Shown in pieces: positions 721 to 47,293 of a stretch of 64,000 nucleotides of DNA. The position numbers and the translations under genes were made by a program. The DNA is taken from contig OX597816.1 of assembly GCA_951406725.2 (NCBI GenBank), positions 110,174,001-110,238,000 on the forward strand, read 5' to 3'. Origin of the DNA: Octopus vulgaris. Taxonomy: Eukaryota. Under the pieces are notes generated by a model that made no database searches, was not told the DNA's origin, and worked only from the letters and a program-made list of their open reading frames with translations. Position 1 is the first letter of the stretch, and every line of letters begins with the position of its first letter.

Positions 721-2585
721 TCTTGATATATATATATATAAAACTTACTATTAATAAAAGCCAGGGTGTTTTACGTTCTGGTATTTAAAACGAAACGCAA
801 CGCATCGTGGCTTTTATAAACAGTAACTTGTTTTCTATATCCGTGTCATCTATTTCTAGCCTTTCCTCTTTCTCTTTTTTCTCCCTTCGTCTCATTCCTT
901 TGTGTGTGTTTCTCTTTCTCTCTTGCCTGTCTTACTTCCATTTCTAGCCTTTCTGCTTTCCCTTTGTCTTCCTCTTCATCCTTTCCCCGTTTCTTTTGTC
1001 ACTCTCTTTCAACCGTTTCTCCTCTGCTTGTTGCTTACAGGTAACCCGTGGCCAGCGTTTCTTTGTTTCTCGCCTCTTTTACACTGGTGGCGTAGCTGAC
1101 GGGTCCTAAATTCCTTGTGTCCCACTGGTACACGTTTTGCATTTTCTCACCTTTCTAATCCTTTAGGATTAACTTCTAATCGTTATTCACCATACGTGTC
1201 TTTCTGGCCCAGGCGCTGTATTCTGCTCGTTTCTTATATGTTTCGTCATTTTACTTCACCCATCGTCTTAGATTACATTTATTCACTTTCGTATGTCCAG
1301 TTCTGCATCGCTTTTTATCCATGTACCATTTCCTCTCGGTCCTATATTCTCCGCACTTTTGTGGACACTGCCATCATGGGACACATTTCAGTTTTATCAT
1401 TAATGGCGCAAAACTGAGTAATACCAGTGCTTCATAACTGATGCAGAATTAGAGATCTTCTATGTGTGTCTTTTGCCTGTTTGTGCACTCAATATACGTC
1501 AAAGAGAGAGTAAGGGAGAGAAAGATGGTGTTACTTCGCATGCGACCTTGTGATATACAGCTATTAAAGTGAGAACGATTTTGATTCTTTAAAAATATAT
1601 ATTTTCGCACTTAAAATGAACAATAAAGAATGATGAAGCAAATTATTATTATATTTTTTTATCGATATCTCAATTGCATGCACGTTTAAGTGAATTAATC
1701 TTCGTCAGCGCAACTTCGAAGATAATTGCGTATTTACCATTACTGTAGACATATATTGTAGCGTTCATTTCGAAATTGTCTTATTAATAGTAGCAGTACA
1801 GCTATATCAATTAAATCAGATTTGGGTGGAACTGAAGAAAACTTTAGAGAGTATATAGAAACTCGTAGTTTCGTTTTTGTTTTTATTCTTAGCTAAAAGT
1901 CATACTAGATCTTCATTGTATGAGATGTATCTAATTACACTGGAAGACTTATTTTCATTTTAGATATTTGCACGACTGAGTATACTAGATTATGTCGTTA
2001 AAATATGTTTTCACTCTATATACTCATGCCCTGAAGAGCAACACGTTATGAAAATAATTTATTTATGCACTACAACAAAATGAAAAAAAATAATATAATT
2101 CTTCTTTAAGTGTTAGTGATCAAAATGGAACCGACATCATTTTACCGAATGTAATGCTGGAATCTATGCACTGGAAATATGTATGCAATGGATACGAAAT
2201 TAGATTACATACTGTGAATGCAATATAGATTAAGTTTGCGATAATAGTGTTTCTTAATTCGTCTTCTTTTACTGAAGTATAACAAACGTAACTATGAAGG
2301 AAAATTACTGCAACTCAATAGCAAAACTAAAAACATAAACATTAAAACTAAAAACATAAATTTTTAAAAAACCTAAACGTATTAAACATAAGTATATCAA
2401 TATCAGTCTGTCTCATATTTATGTATTCTAGAATAAACTCCGACAGATTCATAGAACAAATGAGGAAACTGTCTTGTAAAATCTAAGCAATAATAGTATT
2501 GCCTCTGAAAACAAACTTTAACCAGCAGCATGGAAAACAATGTGCACTTCTGAGTAAATCTATGCATATATGTGTGTACATATAT

Positions 2586-2587
<2 letters not shown>

Positions 2588-2659
<72 letters not shown>

Positions 2660-3124
2660 ACAAATTTATGCGTCACTTGCGTGCATGTATATAAATAAAT
2701 ATATATGTACCTGTGTGTATATTTGCATATATATACAAGCACACACACACACACGCATATATGTATGTATATATTTATGCATTTATGTATGTAAGTATAT
2801 GCATGTGTGTGTCTGTATGTGGCTGTGTTGTATGTGTACGCGTTTACACTTCAACTTTATTTTAGAAACTCCGAGGAAGCTAGAGAGTGACGCACAAACA
2901 CTCAGTGCTGAATACTGTATGACAGAGCTGGCTGTAAGCTAATGAAGATTACGTATTACCCGTTCCTGCCCATGTCATATATTTGATCACCCCCCCAACC
3001 AACCCACACGCACAAACACACTCAAACCCCCCCCCATACACACTCACACACACACACACACATATATATATATGTGTATATATGTATACATACATATTTA
3101 CATATGTGTACGTATATATATACA

Positions 3125-3178
<54 letters not shown>

Positions 3179-3231
3179 CATACATATATACATTTGTGTA
3201 TGTATATATACATATATGTATATATATATAT
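2588..3231. repeat. Compound (CA)n/(TA)n microsatellite region
   Basis: Read directly; similar compound arrays at about 10186-10470, 13196-13310, 17258-17405, 40777-40905, 49447-49620, 52879-53000 and 61483-61746. Confidence 0.95.
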
Positions 3232-3409
3232 AGATAAGAAAGTTTGTTTGGTAAAGCACGTGGGTGAATATATAAGAAAATAGTAAAGTGTGAAAAAACG
3301 ACAGAAGGCTTAAATGTTAAAAAATATATATATTTATGTCAAAATGTCTGGAGAATATTGGAAAAATTTTTTTTTCTTTCCTTAAAATGACATAATTTTA
3401 AAATTTTTA

Positions 3410-3449
3410 AAGAAATTACCGGTTTCGCGTGTAGCTTTTCAAATTTCTT
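3410..3449 (-). ncRNA. Minimal type-I hammerhead ribozyme motif, U3-A8 core variant
   Basis: Minus strand: aagaaat-TTGAAAA-gctacacgc-GAAA-ccgg-TA-atttctt, with 7-bp stem I, 2-bp stem II, palindromic stem III ACCGGT and a GUA site. Confidence 0.65.
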
Positions 3450-3909
3450 GTGACGTTATGTTTATATTGCATGGAGTTATCGTTGTATTTATTTTCAGGA
3501 GATTTCTAAATAAGGGGAGGTAGTGAGTGATTTCTTCCGGTGTAAGGGAGATAATCGCTTAAATTTTTTTTCCTTTTCCCTTGTTCATTTCTCTGTGTCA
3601 GTATGTTCGGATGGTTTTTCCCTTTCCCTTGTTAATTTATCTGTGTCAGTATGTTCGGATGGTTGAGTCTGGGTTTGTACTTTTCAATGAAGAATGTTTC
3701 CTTGTTCAGTCTCATTTGTGTTGATGATCCGAAAGCACATTGGTAAAATGGGAAGATTAAAAATTGTGGCAGTAGTTGCTTTGCGCATTTCTCAATGTGC
3801 TCACTAAAAGGTATCATTCCCATTTTACCAATGTGCTTTCGGATCATCAACACAAATGAGACTGAACAAGTCTCAACGATAACTCCATGCAATATAAACA
3901 TAACGTCAC

Positions 3910-3949
3910 AAGAAATTTGAAAAGCTACACGCGAAACCGGTAATTTCTT
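3910..3949 (+). ncRNA. Minimal type-I hammerhead ribozyme motif, U3-A8 core variant
   Basis: aagaaat-TTGAAAA-gctacacgc-GAAA-ccgg-TA-atttctt, the inverted copy of 3410-3449. Confidence 0.65.
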
Positions 3950-4081
3950 TAAAAATTTTAAAATTATGTCATTTTAAGGAAAGGAAAAAAATTTTTCCAA
4001 TATTCTCCAGACATTTTGACACAAATATATATATTTTTTAACATTTAAGCCTTCTGTCGTTTTTTCACACTTTACTATTTT

Positions 4082-4116
<35 letters not shown>

Positions 4117-4322
4117 GCATATGTATATATGTACTTATATGTATGTATATATATGGATGCAGCTATACGCACATACCTATACATACTGCTGTTTGGCTGG
4201 AGATATGAATGTCAAATATTCGTTTGTGTGTTCAAGTTCATAAGTGAACGTCAATTCGCAAGCTAACAATCGCGCTAACACACATAGACGGGCACACGCA
4301 CATGCGCAGAAACTCCCCCCCC

Positions 4323-4386
<64 letters not shown>

Positions 4387-30304: not shown

Positions 30305-31406
30305 GAGGAAAATGATTCACAAACTTCAAAAAGTAGAAGTATTCCTTGAGTGTTAAACAAAACAAAGACCTTGGATTAAATTACATTACATTACGTAACG
30401 ATTTCCTCAGATCATGCCTTGCTCAATTTCGCTTTAATTTTCCGTGCTTATAAAATAAACAGATATACATGTAACTGATCCACCCAAATACCGATCTGCA
30501 ACCAAATCGGCAAATATGATATTATTACGTATGATATTATTAATAAGCGATTAATGATATTATTAATAAGCGAATAATTAAGCCTGTAAATTAGAGGAAA
30601 AGGTAGGCTTCATTCAACGATCCAATCTTCATTGACTCCACATAATTAAACATCAAATGTCAATTCCTTTAGGCCTTCACGGAACCAAACATTTGTACGA
30701 GAACAATATATTGAATATGCATTTGTAGTTGACAAATTAACGTTGGCGAGATGCATGTCTAACACCTGCCGTCCATTTTCCAATCCAATTATGTGATATG
30801 AAGATCACTTAGTATTATTAAGAAAAACACAATCTTCTCCACCCCCGATCCCACGCTATAACATTAGCTTCTGCCTTAGGCACAAAAACAAAATTTCTTT
30901 GAGATTACTATTGACAAGTTTCATTAGAATTGTCTTTTTTTATCGAAAATACAATGTCAGGGTCAAGCTTAGATTTGAACATAAAATTACAGCATTGTAA
31001 ATATTTAGGTAGTCTATGGTTTCCAGGATATATTTCGCAACATGAAGATGAAGCCTCTAATCAGCTTATCATCGGTTTCTTAGACTGTTCTGTTAGTAGT
31101 ATAATACTGATAAAATAGAATTTATTCAGTAATATTCTCTTAGAAGTTTTTCCCCACTTAAATATCCAACTGCCGTCGTATGAACTTACTGTTATTGTGA
31201 TCATATAATATCATTCATATATATATATACAAATACATATACAAATACATATACATAAATACCTATATACATTCATACTTACTAATGTACAACAATAACG
31301 TCGAAAAACCGAATAATCAAATGCCATTCATATTCTCAGTATGGTTTTACTGATACAATACAATGAGCAAATTACTTTATACCAAATCCTCTTTCATTTG
31401 TACAAT

Positions 31407-32474
31407 GAAACGTTCGCGTAAAGCAGTGTTTAGGTATGGGCAGAATTTAGGATAGTTGAAATATATTTGTGACATATTTCAACAACTAAAAGGCAAATAC
31501 ACTGCAGTTATCTTGGAGAATAAATCTTCCCTATGGTAAAAATGTGTGAAAACACCGTTTCGTTCAGTGTCGCTATCTGTTAGGAATCTCAGACATCGAT
31601 GTTTCAAGGTATTTTGGCTCTCGTCAATGAGATGTAACAAAGGGATGTACCAAAGTGAGGCAACTCTGAAAGAATTTATAAAGCTGTGGATTTATGCAAT
31701 AATCCAGTCCATACATTCACTGATTTGCGCTAGTAGATGGCCCGATCGAGATAAACAACGAAACGTTCGCGTAAAGCAGTGTTTAGGTATGGGCAGAATT
31801 TAGGATAGTTGAAATATATTTGTGACATATTTCAACAACTAAAAGGCAAATACACTGCAGTTATCTTGGAGAATAAATCTTCCCTATGGTAAAAATGTGT
31901 GTGAAAACACCGGTTCGTTCAATGTCGCCAATTATTAGGAATCTCAGACATCGAGGTTTCGAGATAATTAGGTTCTCATCAATGAGATGTACCTAAGAGA
32001 TTCTTAACAGATTGCGACACTGAAAGAACCGGTGTTTTCACACCTTTCTTCAAAAGAGGGATTTATTCTCTACGGTAATGGCAGTGTATTTTCATTATAG
32101 TAGTTGAAATGTCACAAATATATTTCACCTAGCCACAATTCTGCTTATAGACTTTACTTCGTGCTAACAATTCGTTGCTTACCTCGATCGGGCGATCTAC
32201 TAGCGCAAATCAGTGATGGCATTGACTGGATTATTCATAAAGCTTTATACATAAAGTTTTAAAAGTTCGCTCAGAGTTGCCTCTCTTAAGTACATCTCAT
32301 TGACGAGATCCAAAATAGTTCAAAACATCGATGTCTAAGATTCCTTAACAGATTGCGACACTGAAAGAACCGGTGTTTTCACACCTTTCTTCAAAAGAGG
32401 GATTTATTCTCTACGGTAACTGCAGTATATTTGTCTTTAAGAAGTTGAAATATGTCACAAATATATTTCAACTA
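31407..32474. repeat. About 1.07-kb foldback built from ~350-bp tandem modules
   Basis: Direct copies start at 31407 and 31760 (gaaacgttcgcgtaaagcagtg). Orientation flips near 32000, and inverted-strand copies repeat at about 32001 and 32342 (ttaacagattgcgacactgaaagaaccgg). Confidence 0.9.
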
Positions 32475-39588: not shown

Positions 39589-40478
39589 ATTGATTTTGAT
39601 TTTGATTTTGATTTTGATTTTTCCAGTTTCAGCTAATGAGCTGTGGCCATGCTGGGGCACCGCCATTTGGTTTGCTACACGATTTTACCTCACGGATGCT
39701 TTTTAGCAAACGCCATCTGATGCATGAGAGAGTTCGATGCAGCTGCCCTCATCTGCATCTCCTGCCGTGAAGTTGGTTCATCCGGGACACCTGACAGGAA
39801 GAGATCCAGTCCTACTTTAAAGACATCCGCATCTACACCATGCAGGTCCCTCAGGTTCTTCGGGAGGATATTGAAGAGCTGTGGGCCTCTGAAGCCCAGG
39901 CTATCACAATATCTTGTCCTACATCTTGATGGCAAATTTGGAGTCCTTAGTACTACGCAGTGGCGTCCGGTTCTGGCATTTGTGTGACTCTCGATGCCAA
40001 AGTCTGGGACAAGTCCTTCCAGAATCTTCCAGATATATATTATGGCATATCTTTCTCGCCTACGCTCCAGGGAATAGAGCTTTAATCTCTTGAGTCTTTC
40101 CCAGTAGCACATATGCTGCACAGAGGCTATCTTCTTCGTGTAGCTTCGTTGGATCGCCTCAAGTTCTGTGATCAACTTGACACTGGATGGTGACCATAGC
40201 TGAGAGCAATAGTCAAAGTGGCTTAGGACAAGTGTCTACCAGAGGACCATCATGGTTTCTTGTTCTCTTGTTCTAAAGGTTCTAAGAATCCAGCCAGCCA
40301 GCCGTCTACATTTCATTGCCAGTTTAGCAACATGTACATGAAAGGTCGCGTCATCACTCATGTGAATACCCAGGTCACGCACTGATTGTGCCTCTAGGAT
40401 TGCAATCCCTCCGTGTCCAGTGTATTCATTGGGTATTGCATTCAGTTTTGCATGCTGATAGTATAAAGCTTGAAACTT
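39589..40478 (-). mobile_element. 3' fragment of a second CR1/L2-group LINE family
   Basis: Frame reads KFQAL...VRDLGIHMSDDATF...GWILRTFRTR...(one stop)...HFDYCSQLWSP...LEAIQRSYTKKI...YWERLKRLKLYSLERRRERY. It ends in the stem-loop CAGCT-CATT-AGCTG and an (ATCAAA)n tail at 39589-39621. Confidence 0.9.
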
Positions 40479-40486
40479 TATATATA

Positions 40487-40542
<56 letters not shown>

Positions 40543-40545
<3 letters not shown>

Positions 40546-40773
40546 AAAAATAGTCAGGGTAGAAAATGCTAAAATAATTTTATGAAAAACATTTCAGTGC
40601 CGGTTTCAGATATTGAGACTTTTTCAACTGTAAGTATGGAAAACAATAACATTTTGGAAAAATTATAACAAAACATTTTTTTAAAGAATATTTGCATAGT
40701 ATTCAAATACAAGGGGCATTTCCTTGTTTCTGTCTGTCTCTGTCTCTCTTGTTTACTCTTGTGCGTTCAAGAT

Positions 40774-40776
<3 letters not shown>
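40543..40776 (-). mobile_element. Penelope-like pseudo-LTR fragment with a decayed U3-A8 hammerhead (40592-40633)
   Basis: Minus strand: ttacag-TTGAAAA-agtctcaatatct-GAAA-ccgg-CA-ctgaaa (U16.1 changed to C). The segment is bounded by (TA)n runs on both sides. Confidence 0.5.
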
Positions 40777-40827
<51 letters not shown>

Positions 40828-40862
40828 CACACACACACACACACATATGTACACACACACAT

Positions 40863-40902
<40 letters not shown>

Positions 40903-40904
40903 GT

Positions 40905-41116
40905 ATAAAAATGTCTAAGAAATTTGAAAAGCTAAACGCGAAACCGGTCTTTCTTCTAAACTATGTCATTGTAAGAAAAAAATTTATAATATTCGTCAGA
41001 CATATTGACTTAAATATATATTTTTTTAACCTTTTAAAACAAGCCTTCTGTAGTTTTTTCACTTTTTACTATTTTCTATATATTCAACCACGTGCTTTCA
41101 CAAACCAACTTTCTTA

Positions 41117-41120
<4 letters not shown>
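40905..41120 (+). mobile_element. Diverged copy of the 3.2-4.1 kb Penelope pseudo-LTR with hammerhead (40917-40955)
   Basis: aagaaa-t-TTGAAAA-gctaaacgc-GAAA-ccgg-TC-tttctt followed by sequence colinear with 3950-4090 and with the reverse complement of 3232-3270. Flanked by microsatellite. Confidence 0.75.
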
Positions 41121-41152
<32 letters not shown>

Positions 41153-44992: not shown

Positions 44993-46899
44993 ATTAGTTA
45001 GTTAGTTAGTTAGTTAATTTGGCTCAAAAGCAAATAGCAAGGCCATGTAGGGGGACATGGAGTTAAGTACAGGGTGGTGTTCATGAACAAAGCGGTCGTC
45101 GGCATCTTCACCATCTCGTCTGGCAGCTTGTTCCACGGATCCGCAACCCGGACGGAGAAAGCTCCTCTCCTTCGATTGAGATGAAATCGTTGCAGGTAGA
45201 GCTTTTCGGAATGACCCCGCAGCCGACGCTCCGGAGCAGGAGTGAAGAACAGCTCTTTCGAGAGGTTACACTTCCCGCTTATGATGTTGTAGGCGAGAAT
45301 GAGATCACCACGGCGGCGGCGTTTTTCAAGAGAACAAAGGTCGAGCGTCCTCAGCCTTTCTTCGTAGGACAAATTTTTGAGACCATGAACCATGCAGGTA
45401 GCCAGCCTCTGGACTCTTTCGAGGTGCTGTATGTCTTTGAGGAGATAAGGAGAAGAGGCTTGAATCCCATACTCCAATATGGGTCTCACCAGCGTGACAT
45501 AGAGTGGCAGGAATATGGCTGCTGTGAGCATTCCGAATGACCGTCGAATCAAGAACAGAATTCCGCGCGCTTTGTTGGCAGCATGGACGCACTGGGCCGA
45601 AGGCGAAAAGGAGGAATCCACCAAGATACCCAGGTCCTTTACCTGATCGGTCCTCTCCAGCAGCAGACGACCCGGCTCGAAATCAAGTTGAGTTGCAGGA
45701 GTAGAGCCGACAGGCAGATGACAGCACTTTGACACGTTCAGACACAGGTCCCAATCGTTAGACCACTTCCAAATTTGGTGGAGGCATCGACGAAGATCCT
45801 CTATACTACCGCGAGGAGCGACCAGTTTGATATCGTCGGCAAATAGAAGGGTGTGTTGCGTGAGGTCGTCGGGCAAGTCATTTATGAAGACTAAGAACAA
45901 CAAGGGCCCAAGCATTGAACCTTGAGGCACGCCACTGCTCGCACTGGAGACGTCGGACCGCGAACCATTAACTTGAACTTGGAAGGAGCGATCTGAGAGG
46001 AAGGCACCAACCCATCGTACAATATCCGGATGGAAACTATATGCTTGAAGCTTGACAAGTAGTAGGCGGTGGTTTACCGAGTCAAAAGCTTTGGCCAAGT
46101 CCAATAAAACGATGTCAACAGCATCACTATCATCGAGGATGCGCGTCACCAATTCCTCCATTACTAGTAAGTTGGTCAAGCATGATCTCTTCGGCACGAA
46201 GCCGTGTTGGGAATCAGTGATCGAGGCTGTGTTTAGGAGGTGGAGCATCATACTTTTCTTAAGGATGGTTTCGAACATCTTGCTGATTATTGATGTAAGG
46301 GAAACCGGTCGGTAGTTAAGCGGGTCTTCGCGGCTCCCTTTCTTGAAAATTGGGCAGATTATCGCTGTTCTCCAGTCTGCAGGTATAACACCCGTCGCCA
46401 ATGACATATTGAATAGTCGTGTTAAGGGCTCGCAGATGACCGGAGCCAACGCTTTGATAACCCGTGGGTGTATGCCGTCAGGGCCGTGACCCTTGTTGAC
46501 ATCGAGGCCTTGAATAACACGTTTGACTTGGTCCCGCGTGATGATCAATCGAAGCATTGGAGGTACCGATCTATCAAATGGAGGGGGTTCACGACCATCA
46601 TCTTGTTTGAAAATAGTTGAAAAAGCCTCGGCAAATAATTGACTCTGTTGATAAGGGTCCTCAATCGATACGCCTGTTGAGTCTACCAACGTTGCAATCT
46701 GGTTGTTCAAGCGGGAATTCCGCTGGATATGGGCAAAGAAGGTTTTTGGATTGCTACTGGCATTTGCCGCGATTTTGTATTCATAACTGAAGCGTTCTTT
46801 CTTTTCAATTTTATTATTGGATACTAAGCGCTGAACTCTTATTTGTCGGTTCAGAACGTGTTGGGAGGAAGTATTATCTCGCTTGTAAAATAATCGCAA
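44993..46899 (-). mobile_element. 5'-truncated CR1/L2-group non-LTR retrotransposon (LINE), apparently young
   Basis: Open RT frame, 3' (TAAC)n microsatellite tail at about 44993-45016, and visibly higher GC than the flanks. Possible 6-bp TSD GATATT at 44987-44992 and 46900-46905 (weak). Confidence 0.93.
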
Positions 46900-46914
46900 G
46901 ATATTGATGATCAT
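45010..46914 (-). CDS. Reverse transcriptase portion of LINE ORF2; endonuclease missing, and the ATG probably lies in flanking DNA
   Basis: 634-aa ORF with GPDGIHP, NYRPVSLTS, QHGF, DLAKAFDSV, SGVPQGSMLGPLLF, FADD, KDLGI, VRPILEY, LERVQR and YEERL, typical of CR1-clade ORF2. Confidence 0.92.
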   Translation of the reverse strand: MIINILRLFYKRDNTSSQHVLNRQIRVQRLVSNNKIEKKERFSYEYKIAANASSNPKTFFAHIQRNSRLNNQIATLVDSTGVSIEDPYQQSQLFAEAFSTIFKQDDGREPPPFDRSVPPMLRLIITRDQVKRVIQGLDVNKGHGPDGIHPRVIKALAPVICEPLTRLFNMSLATGVIPADWRTAIICPIFKKGSREDPLNYRPVSLTSIISKMFETILKKSMMLHLLNTASITDSQHGFVPKRSCLTNLLVMEELVTRILDDSDAVDIVLLDLAKAFDSVNHRLLLVKLQAYSFHPDIVRWVGAFLSDRSFQVQVNGSRSDVSSASSGVPQGSMLGPLLFLVFINDLPDDLTQHTLLFADDIKLVAPRGSIEDLRRCLHQIWKWSNDWDLCLNVSKCCHLPVGSTPATQLDFEPGRLLLERTDQVKDLGILVDSSFSPSAQCVHAANKARGILFLIRRSFGMLTAAIFLPLYVTLVRPILEYGIQASSPYLLKDIQHLERVQRLATCMVHGLKNLSYEERLRTLDLCSLEKRRRRGDLILAYNIISGKCNLSKELFFTPAPERRLRGHSEKLYLQRFHLNRRRGAFSVRVADPWNKLPDEMVKMPTTALFMNTTLYLTPCPPTWPCYLLLSQIN

Positions 46915-47293
46915 ATTGAACGCAGGTATAGTTAACGAAATTATCTATGAAATAAATTTCAGATTAATAGCATTTGCCCCTAACAGAAATGTTCTAGCAA
47001 ATTTTCGAGAATGATTTTTGGGTGTATTAGTGTTAGTTTGCAGCAGTAATGACTTATGAGGGGTGCATTATCTGTGTGAGAGATTACACTACAGAAGAAA
47101 CCCTTTTTGCAGATTGGAATAGAAAATTGCATAGACGTTAGGGAAGACAATGCAATCGGAATTATAGCTGCGAAAATATCACATGATCAATATTCCACGT
47201 GCATTGCATTGTTGGGTTTAAATGGACATTCTCGGGACAAAAAGGGAGCATAAGTCGTTTGATAGCCCCATATATTGTGACTTATCAATTACC

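Follow-up and report, generated by a model that had tools for sequence, protein, structure and literature searches.

A minimal type I hammerhead-shaped motif with an inherited U3-A8 core in Penelope-like elements of Octopus vulgaris

The insertion at 3226-4090 and its carrier

The stretch of Octopus vulgaris DNA analyzed here (the window: 64,000 nucleotides of contig OX597816.1, assembly GCA_951406725.2, forward-strand positions 110,174,001 to 110,238,000) contains four hammerhead-shaped motifs in which TTGAAAA stands in place of the usual CTGANGA. A descriptor scan located them at 3411-3448 (-), 3911-3948 (+), 40592-40633 (-) and 40918-40955 (+), and none turned up in any of 60 simulated versions of the window (second-order Markov). 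The initial annotation had reported four such motifs, at 3410, 3910, 40592 and 40917; all are present with positions 3 and 8 changed, and the 40592 copy indeed has stem I and II sequences unlike those of the other three. Given that the motifs at 3410 and 3910 are inverted arms of one insertion, the window contains three insertions and not four samples. The features are the following.

3062 to 3236, no strand: AT-rich microsatellite flanking the left end of the insertion, its target (repeat annotation of the window)
3226 to 3819, minus strand: left arm, a Neptune-like Penelope element's 3' end (blastn to the full element L094; open reading frame)
3410 to 3449, minus strand: identical hammerhead motif on the inverted arm, in one insertion with the 3910 motif (descriptor scan; arms 3363-3485 and 3874-3996, 98%)
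3817 to 4090, plus strand: right arm, endonuclease fragment 3817-3870 joined across an internal deletion to pLTR 3874-4090 (blastn; fixed ends)
3910 to 3949, plus strand: minimal type I hammerhead motif (descriptor scan; 46-mer in 30 of 30 fetched loci)
4084 to 4154, no strand: (TA)n microsatellite next to the right end of the insertion, likewise its target (repeat annotation of the window)
40592 to 40633, minus strand: U3-A8 motif of Penelope family B, with U16.1C and a damaged stem II (descriptor scan; alignment)
40917 to 41119, plus strand: pLTR fragment of a family-A subfamily, with the motif at 40917-40955 and a GUC site (descriptor scan; blastn)

The full 40-mer at 3910-3949 (+) recurs, identical, at 3410-3449 (-). 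Its core UUGAAAA corresponds to U3 U4 G5 A6 A7 A8 A9, with U3 at 3917 and A8 at 3922, and is accompanied by a 7-bp stem I, a 2-bp stem II, GAAA, a palindromic ACCGGU helix III and a GUA site with A17 at 3942. Both copies conform to NUGANNA...GAAA...UH with a Watson-Crick 3-8 pair (U3-A8, GAAA, GUA). Among the 150 listed of the window's 160 matches to Rfam covariance models (E up to 10), there is no hammerhead family; the Rfam matches are microsatellite look-alikes of miRNA models, and the minimal shape of the motif as well as its core may be the cause. Contigs from four public runs have no listed difference at 3917 or 3922, and such contigs cannot show ends or strand.

As read from its sequence, the 3226-4090 insertion is a truncated, internally deleted pair of Penelope 3' ends in a TA microsatellite. 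The left arm comprises a remnant of the GIY-YIG C-terminus (approximately 3632-3819), the pLTR and the longer end, about 190 nt beyond the cut site, while the right arm terminates 148 nt beyond it. Copies of the carrier family, family A, have two fixed 3' ends, one 148 nt and the other 190 nt past the cut site. Public contigs have loose ends at 3819 and 3874. Since the two motifs lie on opposite strands of a fold-back, a dimer in cis is impossible for this copy. A 48-bp tandem duplication at 3567-3664 in the left arm spans the endonuclease stop.

The 30 best genomic matches to the 3910 motif region are 100% identical (rounded) and all hold the same 46-mer. In full family-A copies, the motif is found in the pLTR, about 170 nt past the stop of a reading frame for reverse transcriptase (RT) and GIY-YIG endonuclease. 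In L094 and L097 this frame encodes 811 aa, with a CX4CxxC linker in the L094 translation; Pfam recognizes RVT_1 above its cut-off (E 2.8e-7) and GIY-YIG below it (residues 712-759, E 0.067). Family A thus presents RT followed by a C-terminal GIY-YIG, a CX2-5CxxC linker, a pLTR, an inverted 5'-truncated arm, a tail and TA targets, all shared with the Neptune and Nematis EN+ Penelope-like elements (PLEs), which likewise have a 30-40-bp tail at one end and a hammerhead close to the 3' terminus (Craig et al., 2021, PMC8557442). The label Neptune-like refers to domain order and features and not to the placement of a clade in a tree.

What sets full family-A copies apart from these relatives is an ORF1 of 450 aa and a -1 overlap. 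ORF1 (625-2112 in L094, also in L097-L100) has no Pfam match and overlaps the RT frame (1938-4373) in -1. A slippery heptamer, T TTT TTA, lies at 2043 of L094 and is unchanged in the 9 loci containing the heptamer, and the first Met of the RT frame is residue 191, well downstream of a conserved N-terminal motif at 58. Programmed -1 frameshifting is likely in this endonuclease-bearing PLE; a figure legend in PMC8557442 (Fig. 1) mentions a frameshifted ORF1. In two other loci (L140, L145), the 5' part of a family-A element adjoins the end of a family-B2 element, consistent with Penelope elements inserting side by side.

The remainder of the window holds related and unrelated repeats. The 40592 motif has C at position 16.1, where T occurs in 35 of the 37 aligned family-B rows; family B retains the conserved U16.1 and this copy, lacking it, has decayed there. 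The 40917 motif is without base 1.1 of stem I, a trait common to other copies of its subfamily (L067, L093). Two further U3 hammerheads, absent from the initial annotation, lie at 31586-31633 and 31941-31988 (-). They are of type I, with a U3.G8 core and a CAUCGAUG helix III, and belong to family R, with 711 candidates genome-wide. Both are carried by a tandem-plus-inverted repeat of about 353 nt at 31402-32464, which is old (~77% identity). An open LINE-type reverse transcriptase frame of 644 aa occupies 45010-46944 (-), with a hammerhead-like word without stem I on its opposite strand at 46301. A LINE RT remnant, at 39690-40553 (-), is interrupted close to the place where the pLTR fragments of families B and A and the TA microsatellites lie (40479-41140).

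The 3-8 pair across the genome

The genome was searched with a pattern that left C or U free at position 3 and A or G free at position 8, held the ACCGGU helix and required no pairing. It returned 11,118 matches, against 121 for a control. C3-G8 accounts for 154 of them, C3.A8 for 263 and U3.G8 for 365, leaving by subtraction 10,336 of 11,118 (93%) with U3-A8. The C3.A8 count is partly non-hammerhead, as 27 of its first 100 rows (hand count) are one LINE-derived word, like that at 46301 of the window, without stem I. Searches for CUGANGA were expected to miss the U3-A8 class, and a census confined to that form would indeed count only 154 of the 11,118 motifs here, so that descriptors of the published style need the U3-A8 form.

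Family A has 1,533 matches with T3, and A8 is present in all of the first 100 listed. A slightly narrower pattern found 3 family-A matches without T3, all with A8, of which only 1 has C3. Of the 37 aligned family-B rows (one empty row set aside), 35 have U3 and all 37 have A8. U3 and A8 co-occur in the consensus of both families, and U3-A8 is an inherited family consensus, not decay. The two families are less independent than had been supposed, both being Penelope elements, with endonucleases that share about 52-55% identity where copies align best. U3-A8 probably had one origin given this relatedness, and families A and B may share it by descent.

Departures from U3-A8 have also been amplified. 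First, the U3.G8 version of family A has 164 exact matches, hence at least 164 young copies, which form two subfamilies, about 98% identical within each and mostly also without base 1.1. In a pLTR tree built from 35 rows (of 85 candidates, 47 spanned the region, and 12 of the 20 rows belonging to the window's subfamily were left out) and rooted on one family-D copy, U3.G8 groups as one derived clade (98/97), whereas an endonuclease tree rooted on the distant family B places the root inside U3.G8 and needs 2 changes. We prefer the rooting of the pLTR tree, under which U3.G8 would be derived within family A, but the matter is unsettled. With regard to a possible ADAR-type origin of the changes at 3 and 8, between 1 and 17 changes fall on the stem branches, and A-to-G is not clearly in excess among them (2 A>G among the 10 changes of the U3.G8 stem branch).

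Second, family R comprises U3-A8 in 25 of 37 rows, U3.G8 in 10 and other states in 2; C is found at position 4 in 7 of 37. Third, family E, which lies outside the window, consists of non-coding tandem units of about 359 nt with one type I hammerhead each (386 matches), and is likened to the animal non-LTR retrozymes (PMC7229834; bioRxiv 10.64898/2026.07.22.740005); the 3910 motif, in contrast, lies in the pLTR of an autonomous element and is not a retrozyme. In a hand count of the first 100 of 386 rows, family E has C-G in 42, U-A in 52, C.A in 6 and U.G in 0 (Fisher p 4e-22, calculated on copies that lack independence). Of the 57 collected copies, 47 entered a tree (187 columns, core columns removed; among 10 partial copies left out, 6 have C-G and 4 U-A), which separates U-A from the rest at 100/97, C.A at 97/87 and C-G at 93/77, such that each state occupies one side of a branch and 2 changes suffice in total. 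Under a midpoint root, with no independent rooting, U3-A8 appears ancestral and C3-G8 regained through C3.A8. Family E provides the best covariation evidence found.

One fetched locus (L178, G000:C4:80857199-80857949) is a three-unit tandem array of the 360-nt retrozyme of family E with the C3.A8 mismatch core in every unit. Among the fetched copies of an older motif family with a good stem I (L187-L190), three have C3.A8 and a more distant fourth has C3-G8.

The U3.G8 clade of family A, the C3.A8 clade of family E and family R run counter to strict covariation. On the evidence of these copies, at least three lineages have transposed with a 3-8 state that is not Watson-Crick (U3.G8 in families A and R, C3.A8 in family E), and to call U3-A8 fixed, as the initial annotation did, was an overstatement. 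Its proposal of a selected covariant core in place of decay holds in part: the inherited U3-A8 consensus and the covariation of 3 and 8 in one retrozyme family speak for it, and the amplified U3.G8 and C3.A8 lineages speak against strict selection.

Stem pairing and predicted folds

Helices I and II pair with differing sequences across families. In the first 30 matches by position, stem I pairing averages 5.1 of 6, vs 3.3 when shuffled and 2.7 when arms are swapped between families, and stem II pairing averages 2.97 of 4 vs 1.34 shuffled; 0 of 2000 shuffles reached values as high. These 30 matches come from a handful of families, hence they are not independent, and in family A stem II has 2 bp only. 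The predicted monomer fold of the motif is no better than those of shuffles (z -0.04), and the predicted 3910 dimer forms an intermolecular ACCGGU helix at -15.5 kcal/mol, that is, a short palindromic helix III.

The predicted folds bring in a second partner for U3. Pairing of U3 with A17 extends stem I (-4.0 vs -2.3 kcal/mol), and the minimum-energy monomer and dimer are both predicted to hold U3-A17 instead of a free core, the dimer combining this pair with the ACCGGU helix. A17 is present in 6,512 matches, 63% of U3-A8, in several families, a few of which dominate. A C3-G17 pair stacked on helix I has been put forward as a trap for the ribozyme (Kalweit and Hammann, 2013, PMC3884650), with a rate loss of 8- to 100-fold in hammerheads of full length and of at least 300-fold in minimal ones (PMC3884650). 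The U3-A17 pair has the same 3-17 geometry as those trapped hammerheads, but an A-U pair is weaker than C3-G17, and 'A17' has 0 occurrences in the accessible text of that article. As U3-A17 can pair like the known C3-G17 trap, slow cutting is predicted, and we infer that U3-A17 would slow cleavage. No treatment of U3-A17 or of mismatch lineages was found in the literature covered on the 3-8 pair; Lunse et al. (2017) may contain one.

Proposed role, alternatives and significance

Taken together, 3910-3949 has the shape of a minimal type I hammerhead and an inherited U3-A8 pair; located in the pLTR of a young Penelope-like element, it probably cuts the RNA of the element only slowly and only as a dimer. 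Two motifs, provided by tandem pLTRs about 3.9 kb apart or by two transcripts, would base-pair by way of their ACCGGU palindromes, giving helix III, with U3-A8 replacing the C3-G8 tertiary pair. Cleavage after N17 would then trim tandem or read-through transcripts to unit length, and U3-A17 pairing would lengthen stem I and lower the cutting rate. The fact that U3.G8 and C3.A8 lineages also transposed suggests that selection on the 3-8 pair, real as we infer it to be, is weak, and that activity is low. Against this reading stand the genomic copies that continue intact through the cut site, the short 2-bp stem II, the amplified U3.G8 lineages and the predicted folds in which U3-A17 takes the place of a free core. 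No pile-up of 5' ends at the cut site was seen, in loci chosen by searches containing the whole motif and thus biased.

Several published hammerheads resemble this arrangement. The U3-A8 swap is not new, having been in print since 2011-2014. Natural U3-A8 core covariants were described by Perreault et al. (2011, PMC3088659), who cite Przybilski and Hammann 2007 for their in vitro activity; the 3-8 covariation is the same, with several scattered examples there vs thousands of retroelement copies here. Approximately 1,300 Penelope hammerheads were later found with a descriptor dedicated to U3-A8 (Cervera and De la Pena, 2014, PMC4209133); in the supplement, the row S. mansoni(4) has the UUGAAAA heptamer and Saccoglossus 1 is a U3.G8 PLE motif. 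The minimal PLE motif of Schistosoma cleaved weakly as a dimer and not as a monomer (PMC4209133). The minimal hammerheads of Cercyon Penelope-like elements, in Schistosoma mansoni, are likewise of type I and located in pLTRs, with U3-A8 and with opposite-strand pairs 100-700 bp apart (PMC4209133). In the octopus motifs, unlike those of Cercyon, U3-A8 predominates (93% of the ACCGGU class), GUA sites occur commonly, Neptune-like elements are the hosts, helix III is a 6-nt palindrome and stem II has 2 bp in family A. Naiads are reported to have spread without canonical hammerheads (PMC8557442).

A first alternative, which we judge unlikely, is that the family-A motif derives from an active hammerhead whose cutting is no longer needed, the pLTR merely carrying it along, or another role, for example dimerisation of the RNA or binding of protein, keeping it in place. 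Such relaxation would suit the young amplified lineages with U3.G8 and without base 1.1, the 6,512 of about 10,336 U3-A8 matches whose A17 can pair with U3, the 2-bp stem II and the monomer fold that resembles its shuffles, and functions other than cleavage are allowed for in PMC4209133. The U3.G8 clade and the spread of G8 in family R fit weak selection, but also fit no need for cleavage. A relic would nevertheless hardly be expected to leave families A and B sharing the core and GAAACCGGUA when blastn otherwise matches nothing significant between their 3' regions apart from TA runs and short AT-rich words, nor to leave stems that differ between families yet pair; moreover, C3-G8 was apparently regained in family E through two AT-to-GC changes, and U3.G8 is itself a possible pair.

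The reading of the initial annotation, a strictly selected and fully active compensatory core in which an unpaired 3-8 would be lethal to the element, seems highly improbable: the 93% share of U3-A8 and the 3-8 association in family E (the Fisher p of 4e-22 on non-independent copies) favor it, but at least three lineages with mismatch or wobble states have been amplified (U3.G8 in families A and R, and C3.A8, including the three-unit tandem, in family E). Independent decay of CTGANGA after insertion under AT-biased mutation is scarcely credible and is rejected because of the copy counts, for even if both changes are GC-to-AT transitions in a window of about 34% GC, near-identical young copies all have U3-A8, the single C3 match among the 3 non-T3 family-A matches has A8, and the remaining G and C bases of the core are retained.

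We thus return to the slow, dimer-dependent hammerhead as the preferred reading. The U3-A8 swap itself adds little, having been published, with the heptamer already known in a Penelope element. More tentatively, these elements could possibly constitute a living record of compensatory ribozyme evolution, in which U3-A8 passed to C3-G8 by way of a transposing C3.A8, and to U3.G8 in a sister lineage, most U3-A8 motifs being self-trapped by U3-A17. If this were true, Penelope hammerheads would be tuned for slow cutting, and the natural series would allow cleavage rate to be tested against transposition. The amplified wobble and mismatch lineages, together with the predicted U3-A17 trap, provide natural variants for asking whether, and how fast, Penelope hammerheads must cut.
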